Part shown: positions 4,325-26,010 of the stretch, in pieces
How positions within the stretch are numbered: position 1 is the first letter of the stretch
Layout of the letters: each line of letters opens with the position of its first letter
From: an uncultured Coriobacteriales bacterium
Lineage (GTDB): Bacteria; Actinomycetota; Coriobacteriia; Coriobacteriales; UMGS124
Reading direction: 5' to 3'
Assembly (NCBI GenBank): GCA_934636245.1
Contig: CAKUAI010000003.1
Coordinates: forward strand, 120,305-184,304
DNA length: 64,000 nt
Notes under the pieces: model-generated
Database searches by the model: none
What the model saw: the letters and a program-made list of their open reading frames with translations, nothing else
What the model was told of the DNA's origin: nothing
Translations under genes and position numbers: made by a program

Positions 4325-4363
4325 TTAAAACAAGCAAAAGATGCCAGAACGGCGTTGGCTATC

Positions 4364-4389
4364 AAGACCCGCTTCATGCGGGTCTTTTC
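4364..4389 (+). terminator. intrinsic terminator after the secreted-protein cluster
   Basis: AAGACCCGC-ttcat-GCGGGTCTT followed by a T-run, 40 nt after the stop at 4324. Confidence 0.7.
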
Positions 4390-4408
4390 ATATAAGCAAG
4401 TAAAGTTA

Positions 4409-4597
4409 GTCGTGCACGCTGGTATCGGAATGCGAGATGGCTTCGCCACCCGCAAGGCGAGGAACGGCATAAGCCCTGCGAGGCTGAAGTACATCATGGG
4501 GCATGCAGACATCGCGACCACGTACAACATCTACACCCACCTGGGCTTCGAGGATGTGCGTGAGGAGGTGCTGAGGATTGAGAGGGAGGGTCTCTGA
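4409..4597 (+). pseudogene. C-terminal remnant of a tyrosine recombinase / phage-type integrase
   Basis: Track ORF 4355..4597 ends ..GIGMRDGFATRKARNGISPARLKYIMGHADIATTYNIYTHLGFEDV. This matches the conserved box II region (hRHxFAT ... LGH..i.tT..YtH with catalytic Tyr). There is no N-terminal or core domain, and the ORF 5-prime end overlaps the preceding terminator. Confidence 0.7.
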
Positions 4598-4857: not shown

Positions 4858-5328
4858 ATGCAAACGCCCATCCGAATCCTTTTCGTCTGCAAGGGCAACA
4901 TCTGTAGGTCGCCCATGTGTGAGTTCGTGATGCGGGATTTGGCCATGAGGGCGGGGAGGGCCAACGAGTTCCGCATCGCTTCGGCGGCCACCACGAGCGA
5001 GGAAATCGGCAACTCGGTGCATCCTGGCACCAAGCGCATGCTTGCGGCGCACGACATTGCTTGCGTGGGCAAGACGGCCCGCCAAGTCAAGCGCGACGAG
5101 TACAAGAGCTGGGATCTTGTCGTTGCAATGGACGATGAGAACGTTTGCGACCTCATGCGCGTCTTTCGCAACGACCCCGAGCACAAGGTGCACAAGCTCA
5201 TGGAATACGTTGAGGGAGGCGACCTCACCACCGCCCGCGCCGTCGCCGACCCCTGGTATACCGGCGACTTCGAGACGACCTGGAATGACGTCCTCGCCGG
5301 TTGTCAGGGGATTCTCGCCGCAATGTAG
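4858..5328 (+). CDS. low-molecular-weight protein-tyrosine phosphatase (LMW-PTP)
   Basis: P-loop CX5R(S) motif ILFVCKGNICRSPM near the N-terminus, and a DP general-acid motif (ADPWYTG) near the C-terminus. 156 aa. Confidence 0.85.
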   Translation: MQTPIRILFVCKGNICRSPMCEFVMRDLAMRAGRANEFRIASAATTSEEIGNSVHPGTKRMLAAHDIACVGKTARQVKRDEYKSWDLVVAMDDENVCDLMRVFRNDPEHKVHKLMEYVEGGDLTTARAVADPWYTGDFETTWNDVLAGCQGILAAM

Positions 5329-5350
5329 GGGTTGGCAGCCGAGCTGCCCC

Positions 5351-5494
5351 GAAAAAGGCCGTATGTTTGCGTTTTAATTTGACCGGGTAAGGTAGCCGAC
5401 CATATGCGCCTAACGTTTTGCCTGGTAGATTGACTGCTGCTTCAGCGGGCTACTCTGCTTGCTGGATTAAAACGCAAACATGCACGTTTTTTGC
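5351..5494. mobile_element. MITE-like repeat, family 1, copy 1
   Basis: Terminal inverted repeats GAAAAAGGCCGTATGTTTGCGTTTTAAT ... ATTAAAACGCAAACATGCACGTTTTTTGC, with central CCTGGTAGAT. The same architecture occurs at 10402, 14615 and 19149. Confidence 0.75.
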
Positions 5495-7642: not shown

Positions 7643-7863
7643 AACGATCCCCAATCTCTTTATGAATACCTGCTGCGTCGTGCAATGGGCAAACCGAAAT
7701 GCCTCTCGCACGCCTTGAAGCATAGAAAGCCCTGGCAGCTGAAACGGGTGAAAGTCGCATTGCGCGATGCTAGCGATGCGGCCGGGCGCGCGCCTTGGGG
7801 TCACCCGCAAGTTAGTATTGACGGTGCGTGAGCTGGAACAATCCATAGGATACTGACGACGCC

Positions 7864-7902
7864 GAATAACATACATTTCAACTCATCAAATGTATGTTAT
7901 TC
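7864..7902. promoter_or_regulatory. perfect 15-bp inverted repeat (candidate operator) in the divergent promoter region
   Basis: GAATAACATACATTT (7864-7878), 9-nt spacer, then AAATGTATGTTATTC (7888-7902). A third half-site GAAATGTATGTTG lies at 7938-7950. It sits in an AT-rich patch between the divergent reductase genes starting at 7642 (-) and 8288 (+). Confidence 0.55.
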
Positions 7903-8287
7903 GACAAAACCCCAGTTGACGAAAATCAAAATCTTCCGAAATGTATGTTGTTTTGCGCGCGGCCATCTAACCCTCCGTCCTGCGGGTTTCTTTCGCGCCC
8001 CAACCACCCCTGCCCGCGTCACGTGATTTCACGAAATCGGCGGTTTGAAAACAAGTTGAAAGTCATTCGCACATTTCGGGTGTGGCACCGGTCGGGCGGT
8101 AAGCGTTCTATATGCCCTGCGCGCCGATGCGCTGGCAGATGCATGCCTTGGCGCGAGGCGCGCACGCAAGGTTGGAGCCAGGCATGGCTCCATTCCCTGT
8201 GGACAGACGGGCGGGATAAAAACCTGCTCCCAAAGAGATTGGCAAGCGAGCCGCATGGCCCGCTTGACCGCGAAAGGAGTCTCACAC

Positions 8288-10150
8288 ATGTCCAAGATGA
8301 CGCGCAGGTTGTTTGTTGGGGCCGCTGCCGCAAGCGGTGTTGCGGCGATTTCGGCTTCTATTGCCCTGGCCGACGAAGCGAAGAAGGACGAGGCGGCGCA
8401 GGCCGACGCCCCCGCCGAGGACGCGGGCGAAGAAGACAAGAAGCCGGCTGGCCCCGGCGGCATGAGCGACCCTATCGACAGCGCCCGCGAGCTTTACAAG
8501 GGCTGGCTCGGCGAGGCCCCTCAGATTTCCGATGACGACATCGTCGAGACCTACGACGCTGATGTCGTCATTCTCGGTGGCGGCCATGCCGGCACGCAGT
8601 GCGCCAAGGAGGCCGCGAAGGCCGGCGCCAAGGTCGCGGTTCTCGACCAGCAGGCTCAGGACATGTTCATGTTCTACGGCGAGGACATCGGAACCTTCAA
8701 CTCGCAGTACGTGCAGGACATGGGCTACGGCCCCTACGACGAGCAGGACGTTCTGGCACAGTGGGAGCGCACCTGCGGCTACCGTGCCAACCCCGAGCTC
8801 GTGCTCACCTACATCCGTAACTCCGGCGCCATGATCGACGACGCCATTGCCATCTGCCAGGAGAAGGACCCCTCCATCCTGACGAACATGAACGTGCAGC
8901 AGCCCGACGTCACCTATTGGGTCGACAAGTCCCAGCCGTGCGACATGGGCAACTTCAAGACCTACGTGGGTACGTTCTGCATGCGCTCCGAGATCCTCGA
9001 CGAGGTCGCCGAGGGCGTGGGCGCCTACTCCACCATCGGCAAGCTCGAGGATTGCTGCCGCGAGGTGGCCGAGGCCAACGGTGCCACCTGGTATTACGAG
9101 ACGTCCGCCGTGTGTCTCGTGAAGGACGGCGACAAGGTCGTGGGTGCCATCGCCACCAACGCCGACGGTCAGTACGTGCGCTTCAACGCCGCCAAGGCCG
9201 TCGTCATCGCCACGGGCGCCTTCCAGAACTGTCAGCCCATGATGGCCGAGTTCTACAGCGAGGCCAAGGAGCTGCAGGCCAAGAACGGCATCGCCGCCTA
9301 CACGTCCACCGACATTCCCGAGTCCGGACGCGACACCGGCATCGGCCATCGCATGGGCTGCTGGGCAGGCGGCCGCATGGAGGCCGGCCCCATGGCATCG
9401 CTTGCCAACGTGTCGGCACCCGGCCCCTTCGGCTTTGCTCCCACGCTCATCCTCAACCGCGACGGCAAGCGCTTCATGAACGAGGCTGACTTCAACGCAA
9501 TGGGTAATATGATCAACCGCCAGCCCAAGGGCATCTACTGCAACCTGTTCGACGCCAACTACCGTGACATCATCGCGCGCGGCGGCACGAACCACGGCGG
9601 CGTCGACTTCGGCCAGGCAACCTACGTGGAGCAGTGGACCGAGGACATGACGCATGTCGCAGGCGCCGGCGCCGAGGGCTACGTGGTGCGCCACGGCTGC
9701 CTTACCGAGCGCGCCGACATGGGCAAGACTCCCGTGTACGGTGCCCAGACCCTGGAGGAGCTGGCCGGCTACCTGGGCTACGAGGGCGAGGCCGTCGACA
9801 ACTTCGTGGCGAGCGTCGAGCGCTACAACGAGCTGTGCGAGGCCGGCAAGGATGACGACTTCGGCAAGAAGGCCGACTTCATGCTGCCCATTGCCACACC
9901 TCCCTTCTACGGCTCGGTCGCCGATTCCTCCACGCAGGCTGGCACTGCCGTGTCGCTGGGCGGTCTGGTGACCGACACCACCTTCAACGTTCTGGGCGAC
10001 GACGACTGCGGCATTGAGGGCCTCTACGCCATCGGCAACTGCTGCGGCGGTCGCTACGCCCTCACCTACCCGGGCATTCTTGCGGGCAACTCGATCGGAA
10101 TGGCGATGACCAACGGCTATGTCTGCGGCCAGGTAGTCGCTGCGCTGTAG
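8288..10150 (+). CDS. Tat-exported FAD-dependent oxidoreductase, fumarate reductase flavoprotein family (substrate unknown)
   Basis: ATG 8288 with AAGGAG at 8274-8279. Signal peptide MSKMTRRLFVGAAAASGVAAISASIALA. FAD motif VVILGGGHAGTQCAKEAAKAGAKVAVLDQ. C-terminal IEGLYAIGNCCGG. Confidence 0.85.
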   Translation: MSKMTRRLFVGAAAASGVAAISASIALADEAKKDEAAQADAPAEDAGEEDKKPAGPGGMSDPIDSARELYKGWLGEAPQISDDDIVETYDADVVILGGGHAGTQCAKEAAKAGAKVAVLDQQAQDMFMFYGEDIGTFNSQYVQDMGYGPYDEQDVLAQWERTCGYRANPELVLTYIRNSGAMIDDAIAICQEKDPSILTNMNVQQPDVTYWVDKSQPCDMGNFKTYVGTFCMRSEILDEVAEGVGAYSTIGKLEDCCREVAEANGATWYYETSAVCLVKDGDKVVGAIATNADGQYVRFNAAKAVVIATGAFQNCQPMMAEFYSEAKELQAKNGIAAYTSTDIPESGRDTGIGHRMGCWAGGRMEAGPMASLANVSAPGPFGFAPTLILNRDGKRFMNEADFNAMGNMINRQPKGIYCNLFDANYRDIIARGGTNHGGVDFGQATYVEQWTEDMTHVAGAGAEGYVVRHGCLTERADMGKTPVYGAQTLEELAGYLGYEGEAVDNFVASVERYNELCEAGKDDDFGKKADFMLPIATPPFYGSVADSSTQAGTAVSLGGLVTDTTFNVLGDDDCGIEGLYAIGNCCGGRYALTYPGILAGNSIGMAMTNGYVCGQVVAAL

Positions 10151-10262
10151 GGTGCGCTAGCCTGATGCGCCCCGTTCCACAGACGCTCATGTACTCTAGT
10201 ACACATCGCACCTGTGCGCTTTGCGCATCAGAACCCGTGCTTCTGAGGGGATGTGGAACCTG
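10151..10262. repeat. single REP-like unit related to the 39150-39690 tandem array
   Basis: ..GCTCATGTACTCTAGTACACATCGCACCTGTGCGCTTTGCGCATCAGAACCCGTGCTTCTGAGGGGATGTGGAACC shares the CTCATGTACTCCAGTA..GCGC..TTGCGCATCAGAACCCGC..GAACC pattern of the array units. Confidence 0.6.
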
Positions 10263-10401
10263 GCTTCTTGAGTGATTGGTCGACCCCGCTCGAGCACTGC
10301 GAGGAGCGTGCTTGGGCGGGGTCGATTTGCGTTTGGGGAGCATCGAGGGCGTTGGGGCTATTCGCGCGACGATGCGGACGGCTCAATGGGCGGGCCAGCT
10401 C

Positions 10402-10546
10402 GAAAAAAGCTGCGAGTTTGCGTTTTAATCTGGCCGGGTGAGGTAGCCGACGGCCTGTGCTTGGCGTTTTGCCTAGTAGATAGGTTGCTGTTTTGGCGGG
10501 CCACTCAGCTTGATGAATCAAAACGCAAACATGCACGATTTTTTGC
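10402..10546. mobile_element. MITE-like repeat, family 1, copy 2
   Basis: GAAAAAAGCTGCGAGTTTGCGTTTTAAT ... ATCAAAACGCAAACATGCACGATTTTTTGC, with central CCTAGTAGAT. Confidence 0.75.
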
Positions 10547-10947
10547 CAGCCTCGATTGTCCGCGAGCCCGCGAGGCGCTTTCTTCTACACCCCGCGGGTC
10601 CCGACATGTGTTGCCTGCACTGCGTTTCATCCTCGCTGGCCTGGTGCTGTCCTCTGGTGCGTCTAACTGATACAAAAGATGGGTGCAATGTGTTATCTGG
10701 CTGATGGATGGCATGGGGCACTATGTCTCACTCGCTTGTTTTCGTTGGGCGTGGAGCCTGCTGCTTGTGGTGTACTCACATACCTCATTGCCTTGTAATT
10801 GCGTTGATCGTGCAGGTTGCCGGGCGTGCTTTGCGCGATACAGGATGACATTCGATGGACGAAGCAAAGAGGGCCACCATGCGCGACGCGGTCATCTTTG
10901 CTTGGCGCAGGTCGGGTTATACACATGATGTCGCGCGTCGCCTCGTG

Positions 10948-13900
10948 CTACGTCTCCTTTTCCTTGTTAACTTTCAAGTCTTCCATCATCTGGTGCGCAG
11001 CTTCGGGGCTTATGAGGCGAAGGGAGCAATCGTCGGGTTTGGGGAACGCGAGAAGGGGCAGGCTTCCGTACCAGATGGTCTGCTGGTCGAAAATGGCATA
11101 GCAGCTTGGGCCGGAATGTCCAAGTTCGACGCGGCAGCCACAGTTCGAAAGCCTGTTGAGCGCGTCTGCGGCAACGGTTGCCTTTTGAACGAGGCAGGTG
11201 GCGGTTATTCCTCGCTGCGTTGCATCCAGCAGGGATGATTCCAACCGCGTTACCAGGGTTGCGCTGACAAAGGGCGCGGCGATGATGATGCTGCGCCTCG
11301 CTTCGCGGATGTCGTGCACAAACGTTGCCAGGAATCTCTCTGCTGTTATAAATGCGCTGGTACCAGCATTGGTGGAATTCGATTCTGCGGTGGGTCCGGC
11401 AGTATCACCTGGCTTTTGCCAATCGCTTCCAATCGGCTCGTACCCGAGTCTCACGTATGTCTTGAGGCGCTTTTTGTACATCCGCTCAAGCATGGGAACG
11501 TTCAGGTCGACATAGTCGTACACGCGCACGTCGGTTTTGCCCTCCGAAGTGCGATGAAGGCGACCCGACTGTTGGGTGACGTTGCCGCTCCAGGAGATGG
11601 GCGTGGAGAGGAAGAGTGCGTCGAGGTTGGGCATGTCGAAGCCTTCTCCCAGGTAGCTTTCAGTGGCAACGAGGGAAAGCGACTGTTTCGTTGATGCCTG
11701 CAGCGCCTCAGCAATAGCCTCGCGGCGCTGGCGCGGGGTCCCTTCGCCCACGAGCAGCCGCACTTCGGCTCCGCCTTCCTCAATCAATCGCGCCAGTTCG
11801 CGTGCGTGCTTCTTGCGTTTGCTCACCACGAGGGGCGTCCTGCCTTCGTGTAGTGCGTCAAGCACGTCTTGGGCAATAAAGCGGGTGCGGTCGGCGTGAT
11901 CGCACGCGGCGTCGAGTACTTGCGCAAAAGATGCGTCCTCGGTTAGATTGGGGAAGTGCATGGCTACATAGCGCGTGACGAGGTGGCGAGCGAATCCCTG
12001 CTCGGCCGCCTGGGCCCGCACGTCGATGCTGTGGCGTACAGGCCCGCAGAGCATGGTAACTATGGGGTCGAGTCCGTCGGCGCGTTTGGGTGTGGCGCTC
12101 AATCCGTATACCCGTTGCGCCCGCACCGCCTTGAGCACGCGCTCAAGCTGCGGTGCCGCGGCGTGGTGGCATTCGTCGCAGATTACAAGGCCGTAGTTCT
12201 GAACGAGGTCTTTTACCTGGCGCTCTCCGGGTATGTCTGATTTTTCAAACAGGGATTGGAACGTTGCGACATCGACAAGGCCACTCGGTGCTGTTTTGCC
12301 TGCCCCTATCGCGCCGACGAGGGGTCGTTTCTTTTTACTCAGGTTGCCTTTCGGGGTGAGCTGCGGCGGCCGCGTGTCCTGAATCTCTAGAAACTCGCCG
12401 AGTTGTTCGACCCACTGTTCCAACAAGGGCGTTCTGGGCACGAGGACAAGGGTCGGAAGCCCCAATCGTGCAATCAAGCTTGCCGCAACGACCGTCTTGC
12501 CAAATCCCGTGGGGGCGCAGAGGATCCCGGTGTCATATTCCAGCAGCGCCTGAGCTGCATCTTCTTGGGCCGGCCGCAGCCTTCCGGCAAACTCTGCCTT
12601 AATGCGCCCTTCGGAAAACCGTTCGTCGAGAATCGTATATGCTGCGCCAGATTCCTCAAAAAGAAGAAGGAGATTCTCCTTGCAGCCACGCGGCAAGGTG
12701 ATGCAATCGCTGCGGTCCTCGGACAGATCGATGACGCGCGGCTTTCTCCAAACAGACTGGTGCATGGCCTGCGCGCGATAAAACTCGGGATTGGCGAAAG
12801 CGGCAAGCCGGCGAATGCGGTTGCATGCGGCGGCCGAAAGGCCTTCCAGGGGGACATAGACCATGTCGGATTCCGTGAGCACGGTAAGGGCCGGGAAGTC
12901 TTGCGGTGTGAGAGGATGCTTGGGTCGGCGCATGAACGAGCGCGCTCTCCCAGATTGCTGCGCCGGGGATGTTGTGTCTGCTGAGGGGGCGGAGAACCCG
13001 GCACACTCCTTATCTAGCTGCGTATATGCGAACGTCCCCAAGAGACCACCCGTGCGTTTTCTACATATAGCGACGGAGGTTTCGGCCTGCTTCTCCGTGA
13101 CCTTTCGGATGCGAGAAAGAAATTCCCATTGATCGGGATAGGGGTTGAAGGCGTCGTCGACAAAGACCGAGTTGCCCTCGCGCTGCGCCCGGCCTTGGAA
13201 TGGAAGGGAGATAAGGTTGCCAAAGCCACCTTCTACCAGCGTGTCTTGGGTGGGAAAGAGCCGGTCGTACGCATCGAGGCGCATGGTTTTGGATAGGCTG
13301 CACGCTAAGGTTATGAGCGCACAGCCCAAGTTGCGAGCGAGCTTTGCTGTGACCGGCTCCTCAAAAAACAACCATGCATGGCCGCCGTTGCCGGACCGCG
13401 ACCGCTCCACGGCGATATCGAGGTCGAGTTGGCGTCCGGCATCGCGATATGCGGCCACGTTTTGCTGCCAACCGGTATCGTCGAAGTCGGCGACAAGAAC
13501 GGAGGTCTCACAGTTTTCATCGGTCACATAGAGCCCCACGACATCGCGCAGGCGGTCATCGGCTCCCCTGAAATGGGCGATCAGCACCTGGTCGGTGAGG
13601 GGCTTGAGGTCGCGATTGGGGCAATGGGCGCACAGACCGGAGCTTTTGCGCTTTGTCGGGTTGGCCTTGGGGCAAACGTTTGCTTTCCATTCATTTGAAC
13701 AGGCGGGCACATAGGCGATGCCGCCGTCTTTGCGCTGGTAGCCGTGGGCATAGACGTTGTCGCGCCCGTGAAAGAGAGACTGGAACAGGCGCAGCTTGTC
13801 TGCGGTGGAACTCGCCGTAGTGACGATGCCTTCGGACTCGGCCCATTCCGAAAGGTCGGCAGCTCCCTGCAACCATTCGTTTTGAGTGGCGTAAAGCACG

Positions 13901-14040
13901 GTTTTCTCGGATGTATCGGGGGCAGACTGCTGACATGCTTCGCAGATTACAATGGGTTCGCCGTGCCCAACATGTGAGATGCACCGGCTGAGCGCGAGGC
14001 GTCGTCCGTTGATGAGTGCGTGCTTCGGGAGGCTGGGCAT
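10948..14040 (-). CDS. PrimPol (archaeo-eukaryotic primase)-like domain fused to an SF2 DEAD/DEAH helicase and a C-terminal PLD-like domain
   Basis: ATG 14040 (AAGGAG 9 nt upstream) inside track ORF 10948..14085. AEP motifs: VLVADFDD, SGNGGHAWLFF, GFGNLISLPFQG. Helicase motifs: Walker A CAPTGFGKT, motif II DECHH, motif VI QQSGRLHR. The C-terminus (IIIAAPFVS ... GHSGPSCYAIFDQQTIWYGS) looks PLD-like with a degenerate HxK. From memory, RefSeq names similar proteins 'TOTE conflict system archaeo-eukaryotic primase domain-containing protein'; this is unverified. Confidence 0.8.
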   Translation of the reverse strand: MPSLPKHALINGRRLALSRCISHVGHGEPIVICEACQQSAPDTSEKTVLYATQNEWLQGAADLSEWAESEGIVTTASSTADKLRLFQSLFHGRDNVYAHGYQRKDGGIAYVPACSNEWKANVCPKANPTKRKSSGLCAHCPNRDLKPLTDQVLIAHFRGADDRLRDVVGLYVTDENCETSVLVADFDDTGWQQNVAAYRDAGRQLDLDIAVERSRSGNGGHAWLFFEEPVTAKLARNLGCALITLACSLSKTMRLDAYDRLFPTQDTLVEGGFGNLISLPFQGRAQREGNSVFVDDAFNPYPDQWEFLSRIRKVTEKQAETSVAICRKRTGGLLGTFAYTQLDKECAGFSAPSADTTSPAQQSGRARSFMRRPKHPLTPQDFPALTVLTESDMVYVPLEGLSAAACNRIRRLAAFANPEFYRAQAMHQSVWRKPRVIDLSEDRSDCITLPRGCKENLLLLFEESGAAYTILDERFSEGRIKAEFAGRLRPAQEDAAQALLEYDTGILCAPTGFGKTVVAASLIARLGLPTLVLVPRTPLLEQWVEQLGEFLEIQDTRPPQLTPKGNLSKKKRPLVGAIGAGKTAPSGLVDVATFQSLFEKSDIPGERQVKDLVQNYGLVICDECHHAAAPQLERVLKAVRAQRVYGLSATPKRADGLDPIVTMLCGPVRHSIDVRAQAAEQGFARHLVTRYVAMHFPNLTEDASFAQVLDAACDHADRTRFIAQDVLDALHEGRTPLVVSKRKKHARELARLIEEGGAEVRLLVGEGTPRQRREAIAEALQASTKQSLSLVATESYLGEGFDMPNLDALFLSTPISWSGNVTQQSGRLHRTSEGKTDVRVYDYVDLNVPMLERMYKKRLKTYVRLGYEPIGSDWQKPGDTAGPTAESNSTNAGTSAFITAERFLATFVHDIREARRSIIIAAPFVSATLVTRLESSLLDATQRGITATCLVQKATVAADALNRLSNCGCRVELGHSGPSCYAIFDQQTIWYGSLPLLAFPKPDDCSLRLISPEAAHQMMEDLKVNKEKET

Positions 14041-14180
14041 GGCTGCTCGTCTCCTTCCCCAGGGGGTATGGCCGTTGTTGTGCAATTGTAGCAGGCGGCC
14101 GGGGCGATTAAAGTAGAGAGACGGCTTGCTCTTGGTGAATTACCCGCAAAGCAGTGTCGCACAGTGGCATTCGGCAATAC

Positions 14181-14249
14181 AAAGGGGCGGGTGCATTGCG
14201 TCATTTGACTGGTAGACGACTTGGGATGACACGTTGTACCCGTCCCTTT
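14181..14249. repeat. imperfect long hairpin element (box family), copy beta
   Basis: AAAGGGGCGGGTGCATTGCGTCAT - TTGACTGGTAGACGACTTGGG - ATGACACGTTGTACCCGTCCCTTT. About 19 of 24 arm positions are complementary. Confidence 0.65.
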
Positions 14250-14254
14250 CGTTA

Positions 14255-14329
14255 TTGTTGGCGGGCGACTCGATTGGAATGGCAGTGATCAATGGTTGCG
14301 TCTGCGGCTGGGTAGTCGCCGCGCTGTAG
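14255..14329 (+). pseudogene. orphan 3-prime relic (24 codons + stop) of a flavoprotein reductase gene
   Basis: Translates LLAGDSIGMAVINGCVCGWVVAAL*, compared with the end of 8288..10150, ILAGNSIGMAMTNGYVCGQVVAAL*. There is no upstream coding continuation. Confidence 0.8.
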
Positions 14330-14614
14330 CTTGCGAGGGCTTCGGCCTACTTTTCGTTCCGAGAGGCTTGCGTGCTCCGGCATGCATCGCTTTTGGACGC
14401 CTTGCAGGTCAGGGCCTGTGTTTTAGATAGCCGCGGGACGCCGTTTCCCGTGCAATCAATCGTTCCCGTTCAGGCGCACACGCGGCGCTTGGACGGGGGT
14501 GATCTGCGTTTGGGGCTGTTGGAATGACGCAAGGGGACGGGTGCAATGTGCCGTTTCTCGGGTCAGATGATGGTTTTGGAGCAACGTCGAGGAGCGGCGA
14601 TTGAACGGGGCCTC

Positions 14615-14757
14615 CAAAAATGCCGCATGTTTGCGTTTTAATCTGGCCGAATGGAGTAGCCAGCTATCCGCGCTTATCGTTTTGCCTGGTAGCCGGGTTG
14701 CCCCTTCTGCTGCCTACTCCGCTTGCTAAATTAAAACGCAAACATGCGCGATTTTTC
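14615..14757. mobile_element. MITE-like repeat, family 1, copy 3
   Basis: CAAAAATGCCGCATGTTTGCGTTTTAAT ... AATTAAAACGCAAACATGCGCGATTTTTC, with central CCTGGTAGCC. Confidence 0.75.
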
Positions 14758-14948
14758 TGTCACCCGACCAGCCGTGCTACAGGCGACCTGCCTGCAGGGC
14801 CCTCTTATGCGTTGGGGAAGTGCTCGCATGAGCTGTTTTCGGTAACGTAGGGAAGGAACGCCTTTTGGCCCAAGCCACCCTCTTTATATACTCTCCAGGT
14901 TACTGAGTCGTATCATTGCATCGACTGTTGTGATGACGGGGGAGTGGT

Positions 14949-16430
14949 ATGGGCACTGAAACGATCGGCAATCTTCAAGATGAACCGCGCAAGAATGCTT
15001 TCAAGTCTCCAGAAGTGCTTGCTGCCGTACTTTGTATTGCCTTGCAGCAAATGGGTACCGCATTGCTTACCTCGACATATGCTCAGAGCGCCGGTGCTGT
15101 TTTTGCATGGGAGGCTCCGATATCGTTCGGCTTCTCCGTTGTGCTCATTGCGATGCTGTACGTTCTCGTGTCTCGCTATCCCGGCAAAATTGCCGACAAG
15201 GCGTGGACGTTGGTCGGTGTGTTCGTCAACATACTGGGTGTATTTCTCATGGCGTTGTCATTGCGCACGGGTAGTATCGCCCTTGTCGTCGCGGGCGGTT
15301 GCCTGCGCGGGGCGGGCGGAGTGTGGACCATGTATATGGTTGGCCTGCTGCTTGTCGATATCGCTCGCACATACAGCGTCGCTGCCGTGCTTGGTGTTCT
15401 GGCGGCGGGCTGGGTTTTGGCCCTCCCAATTGAGGCGGCTGTTGCGAGCTTTACTTTAATGGGCAAGCTTGCCGTCGTTGCCTTCGTTCCCGCAATACTT
15501 GCAGTGCTGGCGTTCCCTGGATTTCATCGCGCAACTTTGCCCGCGCGTACTGCCGAGGCAAGCGCGAGCATGCGCGTGACTGAGCCTAAGTCGTTCATTC
15601 CCTTGAGCAGCACTGTTTTCGTAATGCTTGCGCTACTCAAGACTGCATTCTGTTTTGCGTCTGATTTTACGCGTGCCGAGGCGGATGTGCGTTTGCCTGT
15701 CCTCATTGCGTTTGTGATTTGCGTTTCCGCAGTGACTGCGTTGCTTTCAGTGAGAGCCCGCCACGGCCGGCCGGTTCTGGGACTGCTCTACAGGATTACG
15801 CTTATCTGCGTGTTGACCGGATTTCTGCTTTATATTCCACTGGCTTTGGGGCCCTCGTCCATATCAACTTGGGGAGGCATTGCGCTGGGCATGGGAGGAG
15901 ATCTGGCGCGAATCTTGTCCTATGTGCTGCTGGTCGAAATCGCAAAACGCAACCCTATTGACGCTCCGGGCGTTTGCCTCGTTGTGACGGGGGCCAACAC
16001 GCTCGGCGGTCTCATAGGAACTTTGTTTTCAAGCCTTGCAGCATCACTTTTGAATTCCCCTCTCTCTTATCAGTTGCTGCTCATTCTACTTGTTCTGGTT
16101 GTCATTGTTATAAACCTTGCCATGCCCAATGCGCTCGCGTTCGACGAGACGGTCAATGAGGTCGATTGCCCAAGCGAGGCTTCTGGCGCGGGTCTTATCG
16201 CGTCCTTTGAGGAATCCGTTTCGAAGTTGGCCGATAGTTTTGCCTTGACTCCGCGCGAGGCTGAGGCCATGGCCTTGCTTGCCCGGGGCCATGGAGCCCA
16301 ATCTATTCAGGAGCACATGGGGATATCGCATAACACGGTGAAGATGCACATTCGCAATGTGTATGCCAAGCTTGGTGTGCACTCGCGCCAGGAGCTCATT
16401 GACTTGGTCGAGGGCAACACGACGGCCTGA
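14949..16430 (+). CDS. LuxR-family transcriptional regulator with a polytopic N-terminal membrane domain
   Basis: About 10-12 hydrophobic helices followed by a C-terminal GerE/LuxR HTH: LTPREAEAMALLARGHGAQSIQEHMGISHNTVKMHIRNVYAKLGVHSRQELIDLV. Confidence 0.85.
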   Translation: MGTETIGNLQDEPRKNAFKSPEVLAAVLCIALQQMGTALLTSTYAQSAGAVFAWEAPISFGFSVVLIAMLYVLVSRYPGKIADKAWTLVGVFVNILGVFLMALSLRTGSIALVVAGGCLRGAGGVWTMYMVGLLLVDIARTYSVAAVLGVLAAGWVLALPIEAAVASFTLMGKLAVVAFVPAILAVLAFPGFHRATLPARTAEASASMRVTEPKSFIPLSSTVFVMLALLKTAFCFASDFTRAEADVRLPVLIAFVICVSAVTALLSVRARHGRPVLGLLYRITLICVLTGFLLYIPLALGPSSISTWGGIALGMGGDLARILSYVLLVEIAKRNPIDAPGVCLVVTGANTLGGLIGTLFSSLAASLLNSPLSYQLLLILLVLVVIVINLAMPNALAFDETVNEVDCPSEASGAGLIASFEESVSKLADSFALTPREAEAMALLARGHGAQSIQEHMGISHNTVKMHIRNVYAKLGVHSRQELIDLVEGNTTA

Positions 16431-16698
16431 TATGCGCTTTTTGGCATACACCCCTGGCGGGTGTTGCGGTCTTGAGGCCGGTGATGTTCTACGATGCTGA
16501 CTGGAAAGCATGGCCACATACCGATTGCCTTGCTCTTAAACATAGTTATTTACCAGGCAGTTTAATAAATACATCCCTCCTGGGTGTGTTGAAGTCCCTG
16601 TAGCGGAATAGTGTTCGAGATGTTAGGCGCAGAAAAGGGCGCCTGTCAGACGGCCATCTGGGGCTCTCTGGCAAAACTTCCGTGAAAGGGATGCTGAT

Positions 16699-18690
16699 AT
16701 GTCCGGAAATGTTTCTCGCCGTTCGTTTGTAGCCGCTGCGGCTGGTACTGCGGCGCTCGTCGCCTCCGGTTCGGCTGTTGCCCTGGCTGACGATTTGGCT
16801 GGAGTCGCCGATGGTACGTACACCGCCACACGTTCTGGTATTGGCGATGTTACCGTGACGCTTGTCATCGGCGACGGTGCCATCACGGATGCCCAGGTTG
16901 ATGTTTCCGGTGAGACGAGCTTTATCGGCGCACAGTTCGGTGACCTTTATGCCTCCTCTATTCTTGATGCTCAAGGGGCGGAGTTTGACACTACGACGGG
17001 TGCCACGATTACGTGTGATGCCGTGAAGCGCGCTGTGGTTGATTGCATTGCGCAGGCAAAGGGCGAACAGGCCCCCGTGTCTTCGGTGGTCGACGACGCT
17101 ACGGATACCGACTGGTTGGGTAGCGAGCCCGCGATTGACGAAGCAGGCGTTACCGAGACGTGGGACACCGACATTCTTATTGTGGGCGCGGGCAACGGTG
17201 GCCTCACTGCTGCGGCCTACGCCGCAAAGAACGGCCTTAATTTCCGTTGCATCGAGAAGTATTCAAGCCCTCAGGACGTACGCGGTTGGTACGGTGTCGT
17301 AGATTCCGCCGATGCCGCGGCTGCCGGCGCTGTGCCCATGGACCACAAGAAGCTCCTGTCTGAGATCAGCCGCTATGCAAGCGGCAAGTGCAACCAGCGA
17401 GTTGTGAAGATGTGGATGGACGAGTCCGCCGATATGCAGGCGTTTGTATCGAGCATTCTGACGGCCGATCCGTATAAGGCTTCCGTTGCTGTCACGACGG
17501 GAGAGGAGGCCTCTTGGCCTGCAGAGTGCGCTCAGGAAAATACCGACTACATGTTCCCTGAGATGGAGCACTTCTGGAACGCCTCCGATCCGTCGCAGCG
17601 TGTCCCGCGTTTGGGGATTTTTGCCGAGGTGTGCGAGGAGGCTGGCACGCCTGTGGACTTTAACACCGCCATGGTCAAGCTGGAGAAGGACGCCGATGGC
17701 CGCGTAACTGGCGTCATCGCTCAGAATCAGGAAGACTATCACCTCATTCGCATCAATGCGGCCAAGGGTGTGCTGCTCGCTTGTGGCGGTTATGCGGGCA
17801 ATCCTCGCATGATGCTTCAGCTTGACCCGCTTGGTGCGGCCGTCACTACTGCCGCCAGCTATAGCCCGCGTACGCACGGCGATGGAATCCGCGCAGCTGT
17901 TTGGGCCGGCGCTGATATCGACCAGGAAGGCGCGCCCATGCTGTTTGACCGCGGCATTGTTGAGCCTGGGGTAAACGGTGGTTATATCGAGAACGCCAAG
18001 GCCTTCGGCGGGCGCGAGTTCCCCGGTACCGTGAAGCAGTTCAACCCTGGTTCGCAGCCTTTCCTTAAGGTGAACCGCGACGGTGAGCGCTTCATGAACG
18101 AGAGCCAGCCCTACAATGACGCTTCGTTTGCCGCTTATAACCAGCCCGGCCATGTGTACTGCATGGTGTTCGACGGTAATGCCCAGGCGGATGTCGAGCG
18201 CTTCCATACCATCGGCTGCTCGGCTGGTACCCGCAACATGGGAATCGAGAATATTATGAGTCAGCAGCTGGAGAGCGGCCTGGTAAAGCAGGCCGACACG
18301 CTGGAGGAGCTGGCTGACGCGTTGGGCTTTGTGGACGAGGCCAAGGAGGCCTTCCTGGCCACGTGCGATCGCTACAACGCCCTGTATGACGCCCAGGAAG
18401 ACGAGGACTTCGGCAAGGCGTCTGTGCGCCTGTCCGAGCTGCGTACTGCTCCGTTCTATGGGTGCTGGCTCGGCGCTTCGTTGCTTACGACTATCCAGGG
18501 CGTGAAGATTAACGAAAAGGCCCAGGCCATGGATAAGGACGCTCAGCCCATCGAAGGCCTGTATGTTTGCGGCGATAACTCCGGCAGCTTCTTCGCCAAC
18601 AACTACCCCTGCCTGATGCCCGGTATTGCGTGCGGCCGTACGATGACCGAAGCAATCAAGGCCGTGAAGCAGATGGGCGGCTTGGAGTAA
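16699..18690 (+). CDS. Tat-exported flavin reductase: N-terminal FMN_bind (flavinylation) domain + FAD-dependent fumarate-reductase-like domain
   Basis: Signal peptide MSGNVSRRSFVAAAAGTAALVASGSAVALA. FMN_bind-like segment with the covalent-FMN motif D-T-T-T-G-A-T (nt 16987-17007). FAD motif ILIVGAGNGGLTAAAYAAKNG. C-terminal IEGLYVCGD. Confidence 0.85.
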   Translation: MSGNVSRRSFVAAAAGTAALVASGSAVALADDLAGVADGTYTATRSGIGDVTVTLVIGDGAITDAQVDVSGETSFIGAQFGDLYASSILDAQGAEFDTTTGATITCDAVKRAVVDCIAQAKGEQAPVSSVVDDATDTDWLGSEPAIDEAGVTETWDTDILIVGAGNGGLTAAAYAAKNGLNFRCIEKYSSPQDVRGWYGVVDSADAAAAGAVPMDHKKLLSEISRYASGKCNQRVVKMWMDESADMQAFVSSILTADPYKASVAVTTGEEASWPAECAQENTDYMFPEMEHFWNASDPSQRVPRLGIFAEVCEEAGTPVDFNTAMVKLEKDADGRVTGVIAQNQEDYHLIRINAAKGVLLACGGYAGNPRMMLQLDPLGAAVTTAASYSPRTHGDGIRAAVWAGADIDQEGAPMLFDRGIVEPGVNGGYIENAKAFGGREFPGTVKQFNPGSQPFLKVNRDGERFMNESQPYNDASFAAYNQPGHVYCMVFDGNAQADVERFHTIGCSAGTRNMGIENIMSQQLESGLVKQADTLEELADALGFVDEAKEAFLATCDRYNALYDAQEDEDFGKASVRLSELRTAPFYGCWLGASLLTTIQGVKINEKAQAMDKDAQPIEGLYVCGDNSGSFFANNYPCLMPGIACGRTMTEAIKAVKQMGGLE

Positions 18691-18772
18691 AAAGCAGCTT
18701 GCGTCGCGGCCTTGTCGCACCTGTTTTTGAATAACGTCAAGCCGTGCACGCATATTTGTTTTAGATTGCTAG

Positions 18773-18808
18773 GCGCCCCGGTGGATTGAATCCCATCGGG
18801 GCGTTTTT
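18773..18808 (+). terminator. intrinsic terminator
   Basis: CGCCCCG - loop - CGGGGCG followed by TTTTT (18804-18808), about 85 nt after the stop at 18690. Confidence 0.7.
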
Positions 18809-18837
18809 AGCTAACAAGCTAAGTTTACGAGACAAAG

Positions 18838-18900
18838 AGACGGGTGCACTGTGTCATTTGACTGGTAGAGGCCCTGGTATGACATGCTGTACCCGGCCTT
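18838..18900. repeat. imperfect long hairpin element (box family), copy gamma
   Basis: GACGGGTGCACTGTGTCAT - TTGACTGGTAGAGGCCCTGGT - ATGACATGCTGTACCCGGCC. Same loop start (TTGACTGGTAGA) as the 14181 copy. Confidence 0.65.
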
Positions 18901-18907
18901 CTCGTCA

Positions 18908-18982
18908 TTGCTGGCCGGCAACTCGATCGGTATGGCCATGACCAACGGTTATGTCTGCGGCCGGGTAGTCACCGCGGTGTAG
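18908..18982 (+). pseudogene. orphan 3-prime relic (24 codons + stop) of a flavoprotein reductase gene
   Basis: Translates LLAGNSIGMAMTNGYVCGRVVTAV*. It begins at the same codon as the 14255 relic. It is followed by a 49-nt stretch (19001-19049) identical to 10268-10316. Confidence 0.8.
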
Positions 18983-19076
18983 GTTGCGCTGGCCTCGCCT
19001 TTGAGTGATTGGTCGACCCCGCTCGAGCACTGCGAGGAGCGTGCTTGGGTAGGGTCGATCTGCGTTTGGGACTGTT

Positions 19077-19113
19077 GGAATGACGCAAAGGGACGGGTGC
19101 AATGCGTCATTCC
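19077..19113. repeat. perfect 11-bp stem hairpin containing the 24-nt box
   Basis: GGAATGACGCA - aagggacgggtgcaa - TGCGTCATTCC. A degenerate copy is at 14521-14557. Confidence 0.7.
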
Positions 19114-19148
19114 GCAGTGATGTGGGAGGCTGGCGGTTGGGCCAGCCC

Positions 19149-19292
19149 AAATAAGACGCGAGTTTGCGTTTTAATCTGACCGGGTGAGGTAGCGGGTTGC
19201 CTGTGCTCGGCGTTTTGCCTGGTAGATAGGTTGCTGTTTTGGCGAGCTACTCGGCTTGCTGAATTAAAACGCAAACATGCATGATTTTTTAC
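19149..19292. mobile_element. MITE-like repeat, family 1, copy 4
   Basis: AAATAAGACGCGAGTTTGCGTTTTAAT ... AATTAAAACGCAAACATGCATGATTTTTTAC, with central CCTGGTAGAT. Confidence 0.75.
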
Positions 19293-19464
19293 CGGCTCCC
19301 GGTTGGTTGCGGGGCCGTTGGACCTCGAGCTGCTTGTTCCTCGTGTCCGGCGCGCCCGGTCATGCTTCGCCTCCATTACGTTTCGTCCCCACTGGCCGGC
19401 GCCGCCTTCCTGCGCGTCTATAATGCCTCCTGGCAAGACCCTGATCTGGGAGAGAGGACGCACA

Positions 19465-20091
19465 ATGAAGGTTCTGCTTGTAAACGGAAGCCCGCGGGAG
19501 AACGGCAACACCTCGGTGGCGTTGGCGGAAGTGGCCCGTGCGCTTGAAGCCAACGGCATCGAGTCGCAGGTGTTTTGGCTCGGCACCAAGCCCATCAACG
19601 ACTGTATCGCCTGCGGTAAGTGCTCTGAGCTGGGCGGATGTTGTGTCATCGGCAACGACGTGGTGAACGAGTTCATCGAGGCCGCCCGCACTGCCGACGG
19701 CTTTGTGTTCGGCACGCCCGTGTACTACGCACACCCCACGGGCCGCATTCTCTCGGCGCTTGACCGCGCGTTCTACGCAGGCGGCAGCGCCTTTGCCCAC
19801 AAGCCCGCGGCTTGCGTGGCCGTTGCCCGCCGCGGTGGCACCACTGCCTCGTTTGACGTGCTCAATAAGTACTTCACCATCAAAGAGATGCCTGTGGTTT
19901 CCTCCACGTACTGGAACAATGTGCACGGTTGCACGCCCGGCGAGGCTGCCCGGGACGAGGAGGGCCTGCGTACGATGCGCAACCTTGCCTCCAACATGGC
20001 GTGGCTCCTGCGCTGCATCGAGGCCGGTCGCGCCGCGGGCATCGAGACGCCGCAGGCCGAGAGCGGCCCGTCGACGAACTTCATTCGATAG
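19465..20091 (+). CDS. iron-sulfur flavoprotein (Isf) / NADPH-dependent FMN reductase family, cytoplasmic
   Basis: ATG 19465 in track ORF 19303..20091 gives MKVLLVNGSPRENGNTS (flavodoxin-like FMN-reductase N-terminus). Compact Cys cluster DCIACGKCSELGGC (CX2CX2CX5C). No signal peptide. Confidence 0.8.
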   Translation: MKVLLVNGSPRENGNTSVALAEVARALEANGIESQVFWLGTKPINDCIACGKCSELGGCCVIGNDVVNEFIEAARTADGFVFGTPVYYAHPTGRILSALDRAFYAGGSAFAHKPAACVAVARRGGTTASFDVLNKYFTIKEMPVVSSTYWNNVHGCTPGEAARDEEGLRTMRNLASNMAWLLRCIEAGRAAGIETPQAESGPSTNFIR

Positions 20092-22164: not shown

Positions 22165-22208
22165 CACAAGGGGACGGCCGTGTCGCGTCATCCCGACACT
22201 CCGCGCGC

Positions 22209-25950: not shown

Positions 25951-26010
25951 CACGAAGGGGCGGGTGCGGTGTGCCATTCGCACGCCGCTACCTGCTAGAT
26001 AGCTAAACAC

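Follow-up and report, generated by a model that had tools for sequence, protein, structure and literature searches.

Copied junctions downstream of a flavin reductase gene in a gut Coriobacteriaceae bacterium suggest stepwise growth by recombination

Introduction

In gut Coriobacteriia, among them Eggerthella and its relatives, flavin and molybdenum reductases form very large families, and a reductase often has a LuxR-type sensor as its partner. The compounds that these enzymes transform are drugs, dietary compounds and bile acids (PMC5953540, PMC9734109). The way in which this reductase repertoire expands and differs between strains is poorly described, and the locus analysed here offers a concrete case with resolved boundaries. 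It lies in a 64,000-nt stretch of DNA (the window) from an uncultured gut Coriobacteriaceae bacterium, downstream of the flavin reductase gene R1. Three junctions (J1–J3) there each repeat the last 24 codons of R1 together with a terminator hairpin, a spacer and a MITE-like palindrome of 148 nt, and two gene modules lie between the junctions, a TOTE-type primase-helicase and a LuxR plus FMN_bind reductase pair. What process leaves the end of a gene repeated beside unrelated cargo? On balance, our data favour an array built by stepwise, additive, homology-anchored recombination between diverged alleles, and not by gene decay.

Results

The array and its repeats

The array consists of an intact gene, three junctions and two modules:

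8288..10150, + strand: R1, an intact flavin reductase gene with an FAD_binding_2 domain and a TAT-type signal (Pfam, translation, exact-protein look-up)
10075..10665, + strand: J1, with the R1 3' end, a 100-nt nested palindrome (10164–10267), the terminator hairpin (spacer A, 10268–10337), spacer B, MITE M1 (10402–10550) and segment x (10551–10665)
10948..14040, − strand: module A, a lone AEP-TOTE primase and SF2 helicase gene (Pfam PF22548, E 1.5e-78, with ResIII/DEAD/Helicase_C; PADLOC PrimPol, E 8.8e-74)
14179..14777, + strand: J2, with a hairpin (14179–14252), relic 2 (14255–14329), a diverged 100-nt element, a terminator remnant, spacer B and MITE M2 (14616–14763) plus 15 nt
14949..18690, + strand: module B, a LuxR/GerE regulator (14949–16430) and an FMN_bind + FAD_binding_2 reductase (16699–18690) (Pfam, fold)
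18832..19420, + strand: J3, with a hairpin (18832–18903), relic 3 (18908–18982), a terminator hairpin (19001–19070), a palindrome with the left-arm motif of the hairpin (19077–19113), MITE M3 (19149–19296) and segment x (19297–19420)

This arrangement recurs in independent assemblies of the same species, L001–L003 and L014–L016 (independent samples), which are 99.4–100% identical across the junctions they span; L001, L002 and L014–L016 cover all three junctions, and the L003 contig stops within J1. The three-junction array is not an assembly artefact, and its repeat structure can be read directly. BLAST and alignment find the relic, hairpin, spacer and MITE repeats at the positions that the original prediction gave them, and extend the homology between J1 and J3 beyond the MITE, to 10665 and 19420: segment x of J1 is homologous to the region upstream of FMN_red, the gene into which segment x of J3 runs.

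The source family of the relics is the last 24 codons of R1. The R1 3' end (10079–10163) is repeated at 14258–14342 (76%, BLAST E 4e-15) and at 18911–18995 (87%, E 6e-25), with the in-frame relic translations LLAGDSIGMAVINGCVCGWVVAAL and LLAGNSIGMAMTNGYVCGRVVTAV, each followed by a stop. The three copies differ at 10–18 of 75 positions and share no invariant stretch longer than 14 nt. In the window the relic frame is open; the stop codon is lost in the related genomes L006, L050 and L122, and non-conservative changes are also present. The relics are not conserved as coding sequence and are probably non-functional passengers. Downstream of the gene tails, the spacer block 10268–10337 matches 19001–19070 with 96% identity, its initial 49 nt being identical. 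It folds as a −41.7 kcal/mol hairpin followed by a U-rich tail and is probably the R1 terminator. A second spacer block (14487–14555 and 19043–19111) is 86% identical.

The primase-helicase module had been described as visibly AT-richer, and both modules do have a lower G+C content (0.53–0.63) than R1 (0.63–0.67). From its domains, module A is a candidate conflict or defence gene; a 73% homologue of its primase occurs in an unrelated context in L121. Module B starts 15 nt past the MITE, not within a gene tail, carries its own terminator (18771–18806) and has orthologues (81–82%) at an unrelated locus in L018 and L019. Neither module contains an integrase detectable with Pfam. Four paralogous reductases lie within the first 26 kb of the window, and the clade is rich in them.

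A shared hairpin–relic joint

In J2 and J3, hairpin and relic form a single 166-nt repeat (14179–14344 and 18832–18997, 81% identity). The left arm of the hairpin is an inverted copy of the sequence adjacent to it and is found again in the spacers at 14530 and 19086; in J2 this is a copy inserted into spacer B (14530–14555). The two hairpins are 82% identical to each other and 75–76% identical to the single copy of L006, and the left-arm insertion in spacer B is a derived character common to J2 and J3 that L006, L050 and L122 do not have. To judge from these characters, J2 and J3 are sister copies, hairpin included. The proposal that the junction was copied as a unit holds, J2 and J3 being copies of one hairpin–relic joint. 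Their identical breakpoints had been taken as the sign of a recurrent insertion site and lose that meaning here: they are identical because both descend from the one joint and not from two independent breaks, and the breakpoint of L122 differs.

The extent of the duplicated segment also varies. For the whole R0–R1 block it is the MITE alone; for the primase module it runs from relic to MITE, for the LuxR–reductase module from hairpin to MITE plus 15 nt, and at a second locus (L092) it consists of 22 nt, MITE and 123 nt, so that one fixed site does not fit. Within the window, J1 and J3 are 88–89% alike in spacer A and the MITE; J1 and its L006 orthologue are 89% alike in spacer A and 75% in the MITE. 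The two window junctions thus resemble each other about as closely as J1 resembles its orthologue, or more closely, in line with a mosaic ancestry.

Folded as single-stranded DNA, the two hairpins exceed shuffled sequences only moderately in stability (z −2.3 and −1.9); the L006 copy reaches z −4.4. Related sequences were found at two further positions:

10665..10745, + strand: hp', a degenerate fourth hairpin copy (motif scan, sequence, alignment)
25952..25995, + strand: copy of the hairpin left-arm element immediately after the stop of another FMN_bind reductase (23884–25950)

The hp' copy folds no better than shuffles and is missing in L004, L005, L006, L050 and L123. A weaker left-arm copy follows the stop of a 2-thiouracil desulfurase gene (about 22160–22200), and the motif, about 26–45 nt in length, lies at several novel joints and 3' of several modules (RedB, RedC, Red' and the desulfurase). 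In about 0.97 Mb of DNA from relatives it occurs only at this locus and its orthologues, unlike REP/REPIN palindromes, which are short, abundant genome-wide and form hairpins as doublets.

Module content varies between related genomes

The variable region lies between two conserved genes, with a fourth MITE-like copy and an integrase remnant at its left:

4355..4594, + strand: remnant of a tyrosine integrase of Tn916 type, a C-terminal piece of 80 aa (Pfam PF00589, E 3.8e-7, profile positions 131–169 of 172)
4858..5328, + strand: conserved LMWPc phosphatase gene that anchors the variable region on the left (Pfam PF01451)
5346..5494, no strand assigned: M0, the MITE-like copy at the left boundary of the whole R0–R1–A–B block (BLAST, 78–80% to the three junction MITEs)
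19465..20091, + strand: conserved FMN_red gene, the corresponding anchor on the right (gene call, Pfam)

Related genomes carry zero, one or two of the modules. The empty site, LMWPc–MITE–x–FMN_red, is found in L057 and L076, where one MITE joins LMWPc to FMN_red. Module B is missing in L006, L050 and L122, which have two junctions; the L122 primase protein is 98% identical to that of the window. In L123–L125, R1 is missing and relic 2 is kept. In L021, L089 and L127, module B is followed directly by motif, spacer and MITE. L123 and L126 have a J3 shortened by a clean 253-nt loss between the 26-nt motif copies at 18833–18858 and 19086–19111, with one motif copy left. Relatives thus have or lack whole self-contained modules, with boundaries that fall precisely at the junctions, and the interval behaves as the growth zone that the original prediction proposed.

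The ancestry of the locus is mosaic. The L122 relic matches the 3' end of the intact R1 of L050 at 74 of 75 nt, versus 89% for its own R1. It is four codons longer (YPDI-LAGN...), its hairpin left arm and loop are missing, and it is followed by an L007-type 100-nt element instead of the resident type. Over the stretch that runs from the MITE to FMN_red, L122 most resembles L089 and L127 (92%). In L006, the last MITE is 94% identical to the M0 that bounds the R0–R1 block. M0 clusters with MITEs that hold the M0 or the last position in other genomes, among them the one copy each of L057 and L076; the MITE copies do not group by position. A second, unrelated locus has the same repeat–module–repeat (a-U-X-U-b) layout: 288-nt repeats that include the MITE flank a 3.7-kb Peptidase_S41 + reductase module in L092, and L102 is without the module.

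Could the relics be the remains of an in-situ tandem duplication, in which R1 and its downstream DNA were triplicated and two copies then lost their bodies by deletion or foreign insertion? In favour of this scenario are the many paralogous reductases of the clade (the four near the start of the window among them), the plausibility of unequal crossing-over at MITE copies and the open frame that the window relics retain. However, the R1 homology ends abruptly, with no decay gradient; the hairpin joint common to both relics allows at most one truncation; the L122 relic stems from another R1 allele than the resident gene; and in none of the relatives, at 10 species-level and more than 15 metagenomic loci, is a relic position occupied by a full-length gene. 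We regard this scenario as highly improbable, and the earlier argument against simple pseudogenisation stands.

Alternatively, non-autonomous integrative elements may have accreted in tandem at the R1 3' end, with an attP that mimics the gene tail, so that each integration restores R1 and orphans the previous tail, as in islands stacked at tRNA genes. Such elements would account for direct repeats containing a gene 3' end at both sides of each module, and the lower G+C content of the modules fits them, as does the primase-helicase, since genes of this type are common on integrative elements, and a degenerate element of that kind, with an integrase fragment, is present a few kb upstream. The modules themselves, however, have neither integrase nor excisionase, and the relic copies lack a long invariant core of the kind expected of an att site. 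The homology runs 400–500 nt past the R1 stop, through terminator and MITE, which an att mimic does not explain, and module B begins 15 nt after the MITE rather than in the gene tail. L123 has the array without any R1, and L089 and L127 have module B without a relic at its right. These observations make accretion very unlikely.

The absence of a recombinase gene, as originally stated, is correct for 10079–19292 itself; it overlooks the Tn916-type integrase remnant (4355–4594) just upstream of the array. By tblastn across all loci, the integrase is full length (403 aa, PF02920 + PF00589) only in the empty-site genome L076, and no Tn916-type integrase is found at other MITE loci. It is truncated in the window, L006, L050, L116 and L120, yet these differ in module content; later changes therefore did not need the integrase.

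A dispersed palindrome at the module boundaries

The MITE-like element is intergenic, 148 nt long and ends in 27–33-nt terminal inverted repeats. In addition to the junction copies (10402–10550, 14616–14763 and 19149–19296), M0 (5346–5494) lies outside the interval originally considered, giving four family copies in the window; 98 metagenomic stretches contain the element, with 117 distinct copies among the matches listed. As a short non-coding element with terminal inverted repeats and many copies, it qualifies as MITE-like. The flanks of independent copies show no consistent target-site duplication, and no transposase with matching ends was seen in the examined loci. The palindrome stems show paired variation between subfamilies, and two boxes, GTTTGCGTTTTAAT and ATTAAAACGCAAAC, are conserved; read directly, neither matches attC cores. 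Rfam gives no match at E ≤ 1 in 5000–27000. Unlike an attC site, the palindrome has no R''(RYYYAAC)/R'(GTTRRRY) cores, and the duplicated DNA extends beyond it.

A site-specific, cassette-like system would nonetheless give the repeats a direct role: the palindrome and/or the 26–45-nt hairpin motif would be attC- or pdif-like recombination sites, the recombinase would be encoded elsewhere (for example an Xer-type enzyme or the neighbouring Tn916-type integrase), and modules would be excised as circles and re-inserted. The palindrome is present in every duplicated segment (window junctions, R0–R1 block, L092/L102 locus), the motif is found where each module ends on the right and also at three different novel joints, L123 differs from the window by a clean motif-to-motif event, and an intact tyrosine integrase adjoins the empty site. 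At unrelated loci the palindrome often borders conserved versus non-shared DNA, although this one-flank statistic is inflated by multi-copy IS-like flanks. Against such a system, the duplicated segments overrun the palindrome by 22–450 nt, a different amount in each event, and the motif joints have no fixed position: 16 nt are kept in L089 and L127 and 30 nt in L123, and in L021 and L127 module B meets the spacer about 17 nt ahead of the motif. L122 is entirely without the hairpin left arm, the motif is confined to this locus, the genomes with truncated integrase still differ in modules, the integrase is absent from other MITE loci, and the modules have their own regulators and terminators and lie in both orientations. 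We therefore consider a site-specific system unlikely. Its most far-reaching form, in which the palindrome, perhaps with the module-end motif, would be the recognition site of an undescribed module-exchange system in gut Coriobacteriia, a chromosomal attC/pdif analogue that adds and removes reductase–regulator pairs and defence genes, is distinctly unlikely; if true, it would represent a dedicated route for expanding large reductase repertoires and be of much higher interest.

Discussion

Ordinary recombination at repeats fits the module states better than a new cassette machine. In the stepwise additive reading, a junction comprises the last 24–28 R1 codons, the R1 terminator hairpin, a short spacer and the dispersed 148-nt palindromic repeat. 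DNA from a diverged relative would bring its own copy of the junction together with a new module and displace the old gene tail, joining the chromosome via homology within or left of the junction. This might occur by single-crossover (Campbell-type) integration of a circularised fragment, or by homologous anchoring at one end combined with an illegitimate joint at the opposite end. Both routes would add the module and leave the old junction, with its orphaned gene tail, downstream of it. The abrupt joints and mosaic ancestry, of which the end products alone are visible, are consistent with combined one-sided homologous and illegitimate recombination.

From shared and derived characters, the R0–R1 block would have entered first, between two MITE copies. 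The primase-helicase module would then have arrived and created the hairpin–relic joint, and the LuxR–reductase module would have followed, bringing the entire joint along a second time. Subsequent recombination between copies, both homologous and at short repeats, would have deleted, shortened and swapped pieces by lineage, the palindromic repeats serving as portable homology, anchors and fragile breakpoints. The sequences themselves show the repeat structure, the module states, the mosaic ancestry and the clean deletion between repeats, whereas we infer both the molecular route and the direction of each step; the directions rest on parsimony over a few metagenomic contigs, because neither a circular intermediate nor a donor arrangement nor a recombination event was observed. 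In systems where its frequency has been measured, homology-facilitated illegitimate recombination is rare (PMC5361080), which counts against this reading. The regularity of the motif at joints and module 3' ends is not obviously expected from random illegitimate joints, and a recognition site would also fit; the MITE-like repeat within every duplicated segment seen could likewise reflect a site-specific step.

The original prediction knew of no described mechanism for such an expansion. Additive, homology-anchored recombination that leaves orphaned 3' ends is, however, known from the C-terminal displacement ('sequential displacement') arrays of Rhs, CDI and T6SS effector–immunity loci, for which homology-facilitated illegitimate recombination is the proposed origin (Kirchberger et al. 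2017, PMC5361080, citing Jackson et al. 2009). As in the Rhs/T6SS arrays, a row of orphaned 3' ends, with separate downstream DNA behind each, comes after an intact gene; additions lie beside that gene and older tails are shifted downstream, with no dedicated recombinase; and the array is mosaic, exchanged between lineages by homologous recombination. Orphaned 3' ends from other alleles, a feature of displacement arrays, are represented by the two window relics and the L122 relic of L050 type. In contrast to those arrays, the gene here encodes a metabolic flavin reductase whose tail is conserved, and not a polymorphic toxin, the orphan tails span 24–28 codons and have no partner gene, terminator and repeats take the place of an immunity gene downstream, the cargo consists of unrelated genes, and a dispersed palindromic repeat is found in every duplicated junction.

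Orphaned 3' ends are best known from toxin loci. The present case suggests that in metabolic loci, too, they can mark additive recombination of this kind, and relics could therefore be used to flag recent gene gain. At this locus, reductase–regulator pairs and a defence gene appear to be gained and lost as units at repeat-bounded junctions, and empty, intermediate and fuller states still coexist in human gut metagenomes.

Campbell-type integration would produce exactly this a-U-X-U-b pattern. A later exchange between the U copies deletes X again, which is the state of the two-junction genomes. The length of U varies between events because it is set by the shared homology. Unlike a Campbell-type insertion, the locus contains no replicon or vector backbone, the circle being hypothetical, and the 19–40% divergence of the U copies implies that the event is old or that the alleles come from different lineages.

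Resemblance to integrons lies in a tyrosine recombinase gene beside the start of the array, imperfect palindromes of 57–150 nt between modules and content that varies among relatives. Unlike IntI with attI, the integrase is of Tn916 type (PF02920 + PF00589) and truncated in array-bearing genomes. Integron cassettes are mostly promoterless single ORFs in one orientation, whereas module A lies on the minus strand and the multi-gene module B has its own LuxR and terminator.

The pdif (dif) modules of Acinetobacter plasmids are likewise accessory modules without their own recombinase, bounded by short sites and shuffled between replicons (PMC6449649). Insertion sequences target pdif sites (PMC10132070), and an IS-like end targets the MITE here. 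The present setting differs in being chromosomal and in its much longer repeats. No Xer-type 11-6-11 site was recognised at the locus, with no sign of Xer involvement. By eye, the motif and MITE boxes are unlike known dif arms, the XerC and XerD halves of a 28-nt site with a spacer between them. With MITE- and REP-type repeats the palindrome shares its many copies in relatives, its intergenic location and its place at the boundaries of rearrangements; unlike a typical MITE or REP, it recurs at module boundaries along with adjacent unique DNA.

Gene content and junction structure

Positions without a prefix refer to the window; L numbers denote related genomic loci and metagenomic contigs. The genes concerned are arranged as follows.

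5894-7876 (-), reductase R0
8288-10150 (+), R1, TAT-signal flavin reductase
10948-14040 (-), lone AEP-TOTE primase and SF2 helicase gene (module A)
14949-16430, LuxR/GerE regulator (module B, with RedB)
16699-18690, RedB, FMN_bind and FAD_binding_2 reductase
19465-20091 (+), FMN_red, right anchor gene
3' of FMN_red, in order: MFS transporter, 2-thiouracil desulfurase, second LuxR (-), RedC
23884-25950, RedC, second FMN_bind reductase

Repeat finding and self-BLAST of the window recover three homologous junctions (J1, 10075-10665; J2, 14179-14777; J3, 18832-19420), in line with the original prediction of a triplicated junction. The R1 tail at 10079-10163 is repeated at 14258-14342 (76%) and 18911-18995 (87%), and both of these relics, orphan copies of the last 24 codons, are open in frame and retain the terminal stop codon. 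A hairpin-plus-relic block of 166 nt is common to J2 and J3 with 81% identity; spacer blocks and a 148-nt palindrome with terminal inverted repeats of 27-33 nt are common to all three junctions. The 49-nt block of full identity lies within a hairpin (-41.7 kcal/mol, z -6.8) that runs into a U-rich tail. This structure is most simply read as the intrinsic terminator of R1 and would therefore make the J3 copy an orphan terminator. The hairpins preceding the relics in the window fold only moderately better than shuffles (z -2.3 and -1.9), and the L006 copy folds better than these (z -4.4).

Several features were overlooked in the original prediction. A fourth palindrome copy lies at 5346-5494, the homology of J1 and J3 extends to 10665 and 19420, into the FMN_red upstream region, and a degenerate hairpin copy occupies 10665-10745. 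The left arm of the hairpin (~ACAAAGGGACGGGTGCAATGTGTCAT) also occurs in the spacers of J2 and J3 (14530, 19086) and after the stop codons of the desulfurase (~22160) and RedC (25952).

Contigs from independent samples match the window at 99.4-100% across the junctions they span, and five of them (L001, L002, L014-L016) cover all three; assembly error therefore does not account for the three-junction arrangement. An Rfam scan of 5000-27000 (E <= 1) gave no match. The hairpin pattern GGGTGCANTGYGTYATTTGACYGGTAGA had 0 matches in an exact-pattern scan of metagenomes, so the hairpin is not widespread at that stringency, and a REP/REPIN assignment was rejected, since the motif occurs at this locus alone within ~0.97 Mb of related DNA. 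Counts from a promoter/terminator consensus scan, whose loop limit misses the long terminator hairpin, were at shuffle level. The ORF at 19360-20919 (-), considered as a recombinase, has no Pfam match; the true gene there is FMN_red on the plus strand.

The palindrome centre TTTTGCCTGGTAGATAGGT (10460-10485, 14670-14690, 19205-19230) resembles both the hairpin loop CATTTGACTGGTAGA (14203-14216, 18856-18869) and the sequence CATTTGCCTGCTAGATAGGT after the desulfurase stop codon in L122 and L050, a short box being common to them. A nested-palindrome element of ~100 nt sits directly at the R1 stop codon (window 10164-10267; in tandem at L012 11815-12080) and is also listed at window 39381-39446. 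It is variable among the J1 copies of different genomes, and L005 and L120 lack it. L007 (5350-5560) carries a second type of 100-nt element, flanked by a 16-nt duplication of the last R1 codons (GGTCGCYGCGCTGTAG), an arrangement reminiscent of a small insertion that duplicated its target.

Locus states among relatives

Modules are present or absent among relatives with junction-precise boundaries, as expected of the growth zone that had been proposed, and the junction was indeed copied as a unit within this zone of module accumulation. At the empty site of L057 and L076, the left anchor gene LMWPc, a single palindrome, the segment x upstream of FMN_red and FMN_red itself follow one another, and the whole 13.8 kb equivalent to 5495-19148 is missing. 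The two-junction state of L006, L050 and L122 has the order R0-R1-J1-primase-junction-FMN_red and lacks the LuxR-RedB module. Three junctions were seen only in the window's own species. Four loci 93% identical to the window (L123-L126) keep relic 2, the primase and module B; R1 is replaced by motif, spacer and palindrome, and J3 lacks exactly the 253 nt between two 26-nt motif copies. In L021, L089 and L127 (~86% identical), module B runs straight into spacer, motif, palindrome, x and FMN_red, and the palindrome to its left is reduced to the right arm by other DNA.

Outside the clade, module B orthologues (81-82%) adjoin HGD-D/BcrAD genes, a 73% primase homologue is flanked by unrelated genes, and R1 orthologues have different neighbours and no palindrome. 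A full-length reductase was found at a relic position in none of the genomes compared. Decay of a tandem gene array was rejected, as neither a decay gradient nor a full-length intermediate is seen. Empty, intermediate and fuller locus states co-exist in human gut metagenomes, and the setting, a metabolic reductase locus of gut Coriobacteriia, is new.

In L089 (7696-11694; also in L050, L122 and L123), an additional module of LuxR' (-) and reductase (+) separates the desulfurase from the second LuxR and terminates in the left-arm motif and a terminator; it is missing from the window (22189-22204). Within the window's own species, L015 (10628-11041) has ~415 nt of unrelated sequence in place of the FMN_red-MFS intergenic region (window 20092-20167), with flanks 97-100% identical to the window. 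After close relatives, the best homologues of RedB (16699-18690) are 61-64% identical over the full length and some are source-named Faecalibacterium or Clostridiales, which suggests that FMN_bind reductases may be exchanged across phyla. Contigs with 92% R1 orthologues and the 73% primase homologue come from bins that bear the names of unrelated phyla (L008 and L121, both from GCA_963648855.1, titled Alistipes onderdonkii; L012, titled Acutalibacteraceae), probably through binning errors in public records.

Origin of the shared breakpoint

From hairpin through relic and spacer to palindrome, J2 and J3 are mutual copies. The two hairpins share 82% identity, against 75-76% for each with the single copy of L006, and spacer B of both junctions contains an inserted left-arm motif that is missing from L006, L050 and L122. 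The identical breakpoints, previously taken to mark a recurrent insertion site, therefore reflect one hairpin/relic joint that was copied later rather than two breaks at one codon. This joint is not invariant across genomes: in L122, whose primase protein is 98% identical, the relic begins four codons earlier (YPDILAGN...) and the hairpin lacks its left arm and loop. Simple J2 x J3 recombination from the window arrangement was rejected as the source of the two-junction genomes, as these are without the spacer-B insertion. Recent in-situ duplication of J2 as the origin of J3 also appears doubtful, because J3 lacks the 100-nt element of J2 and is nearer to J1 from relic through MITE.

The locus has a mosaic ancestry. 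The relic of L122 agrees with the tail of the intact R1 in L050 at 74/75 positions but is only 89% identical to L122's own R1, and it is followed by a 100-nt element of the L007 type, not the resident type. Up to 14143, L122 matches the window at 94%; rightward the identity is 84-90%, and there L122 is closest to L089 and L127. Position does not determine how the palindrome copies group: L006 M0 (its first copy) matches the last L006 palindrome at 94%, the single copy of L076 matches that last copy at 97%, L050 M1 falls with the L089 copy (94%), and window M1 with window M3 (88%). These patterns call for repeated recombination between diverged locus alleles and among junction copies. The relic stop codon is missing in L006, L050 and L122, and the relics are not maintained as coding sequence.

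Proposed growth of the array

To the structures, presence/absence states and mosaicism seen in these loci we add an order of events and a molecular route that we infer. We lean towards growth of the array by stepwise additive, homology-anchored recombination. Incoming DNA would carry its own junction copy and a new module, leaving the resident junction, with its orphaned R1 tail and terminator, downstream of the added module. Portable homology and fragile sites could come from the dispersed palindrome and from the shorter hairpin motif, and later homologous and short-repeat recombination may trim or swap pieces. An intermediate in which R1, a junction and FMN_red adjoin without the primase module is predicted but was not seen among these loci. 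Strings of orphaned 3' regions at Rhs and T6SS loci have been ascribed to homology-facilitated illegitimate recombination (PMC5361080), and C-terminal or sequential displacement there, which likewise leaves orphaned 3' ends, is the closest described precedent (PMC5361080). A recurrent insertion site without known mechanism is not supported; known recombination processes explain the structure.

The duplicated segment U varies by event. For the R0-R1 block it is the palindrome only (M0 versus the last copy); for the primase module it reaches from the relic to the palindrome (+11-115 nt), and for module B from the hairpin to 15 nt past the palindrome. L092, an unrelated locus, has 288-nt direct repeats (22 nt, palindrome and 123 nt; 84% identical) at 3787-4074 and 7824-8107 that flank a 3.7-kb module of Peptidase_S41 and FAD_binding_2 reductase, which the orthologous L102 site (10074-10369) lacks. 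What is new is that one 148-nt palindromic repeat recurs in duplicated junctions, both in this array and at another reductase locus. An a-U-X-U-b arrangement in which U varies is generated when a circularised fragment integrates by a single crossover, and also when a fragment that is homologous at one end and illegitimate at the other bridges two sister copies; a recombinase acting at a fixed core does not generate it.

The main rival explanation is a dedicated site-specific recombination system acting at the palindrome or motif. Such a system would account for the palindrome within every duplicated segment, for the motif at the end of each module and at three different novel joints, and for the clean motif-to-motif event that distinguishes L123 from the window. 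However, the duplicated DNA overruns the sites by varying amounts, the motif joints differ in position between L089/L127, L123 and L021, L122 lacks the complete hairpin, and the motif is restricted to this one locus in the related DNA. An intact Tn916-type integrase (PF02920 and PF00589) beside the L076 empty site could supply the activity, but it is present at no other palindrome locus, and the window, L006, L050, L116 and L120 differ in modules despite sharing the same truncated integrase C-terminal stub. Neither the palindrome nor the motif is likely, in our view, to be a genuine recombination site; if one were, the significance of the locus would be considerably greater. Homology-anchored growth remains our preferred reading.

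The integrase is full length at L076 1713-2921 (-), split into two ORFs in L057 (2014-3223, +) and reduced to a C-terminal stub of 52-80 aa in all array-bearing genomes seen (window 4355-4594, L006, L050, L116 and L120). An integron was rejected because of the type of integrase, the site cores and the organisation of the cassettes, and integrative-element accretion at the R1 tail because integrases are absent and homology runs far past the gene.

Palindrome flanks

The palindrome has GTTTGCGTTTTAAT ends. A flank-sharing statistic for the MITE loci is suggestive only, as multi-copy IS-like sequences adjoin many copies. At four loci (L089 85-120, L087 ~13545-13580, L074 and L085) the palindrome is either bordered or interrupted by one and the same IS-like terminal sequence, GGACAACTTATGTCAACGGTGGTCTAACAGAGAG, which suggests that some element may target the palindrome; an Abi-like ORF adjoins the IS-like end in L087. 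Distant from the array, 41395-41520 holds a diverged relative of the palindrome (GTATGCGTTATAAAT ... ATTATAACGCAGAC), and a similar variant is found at L084 10269.
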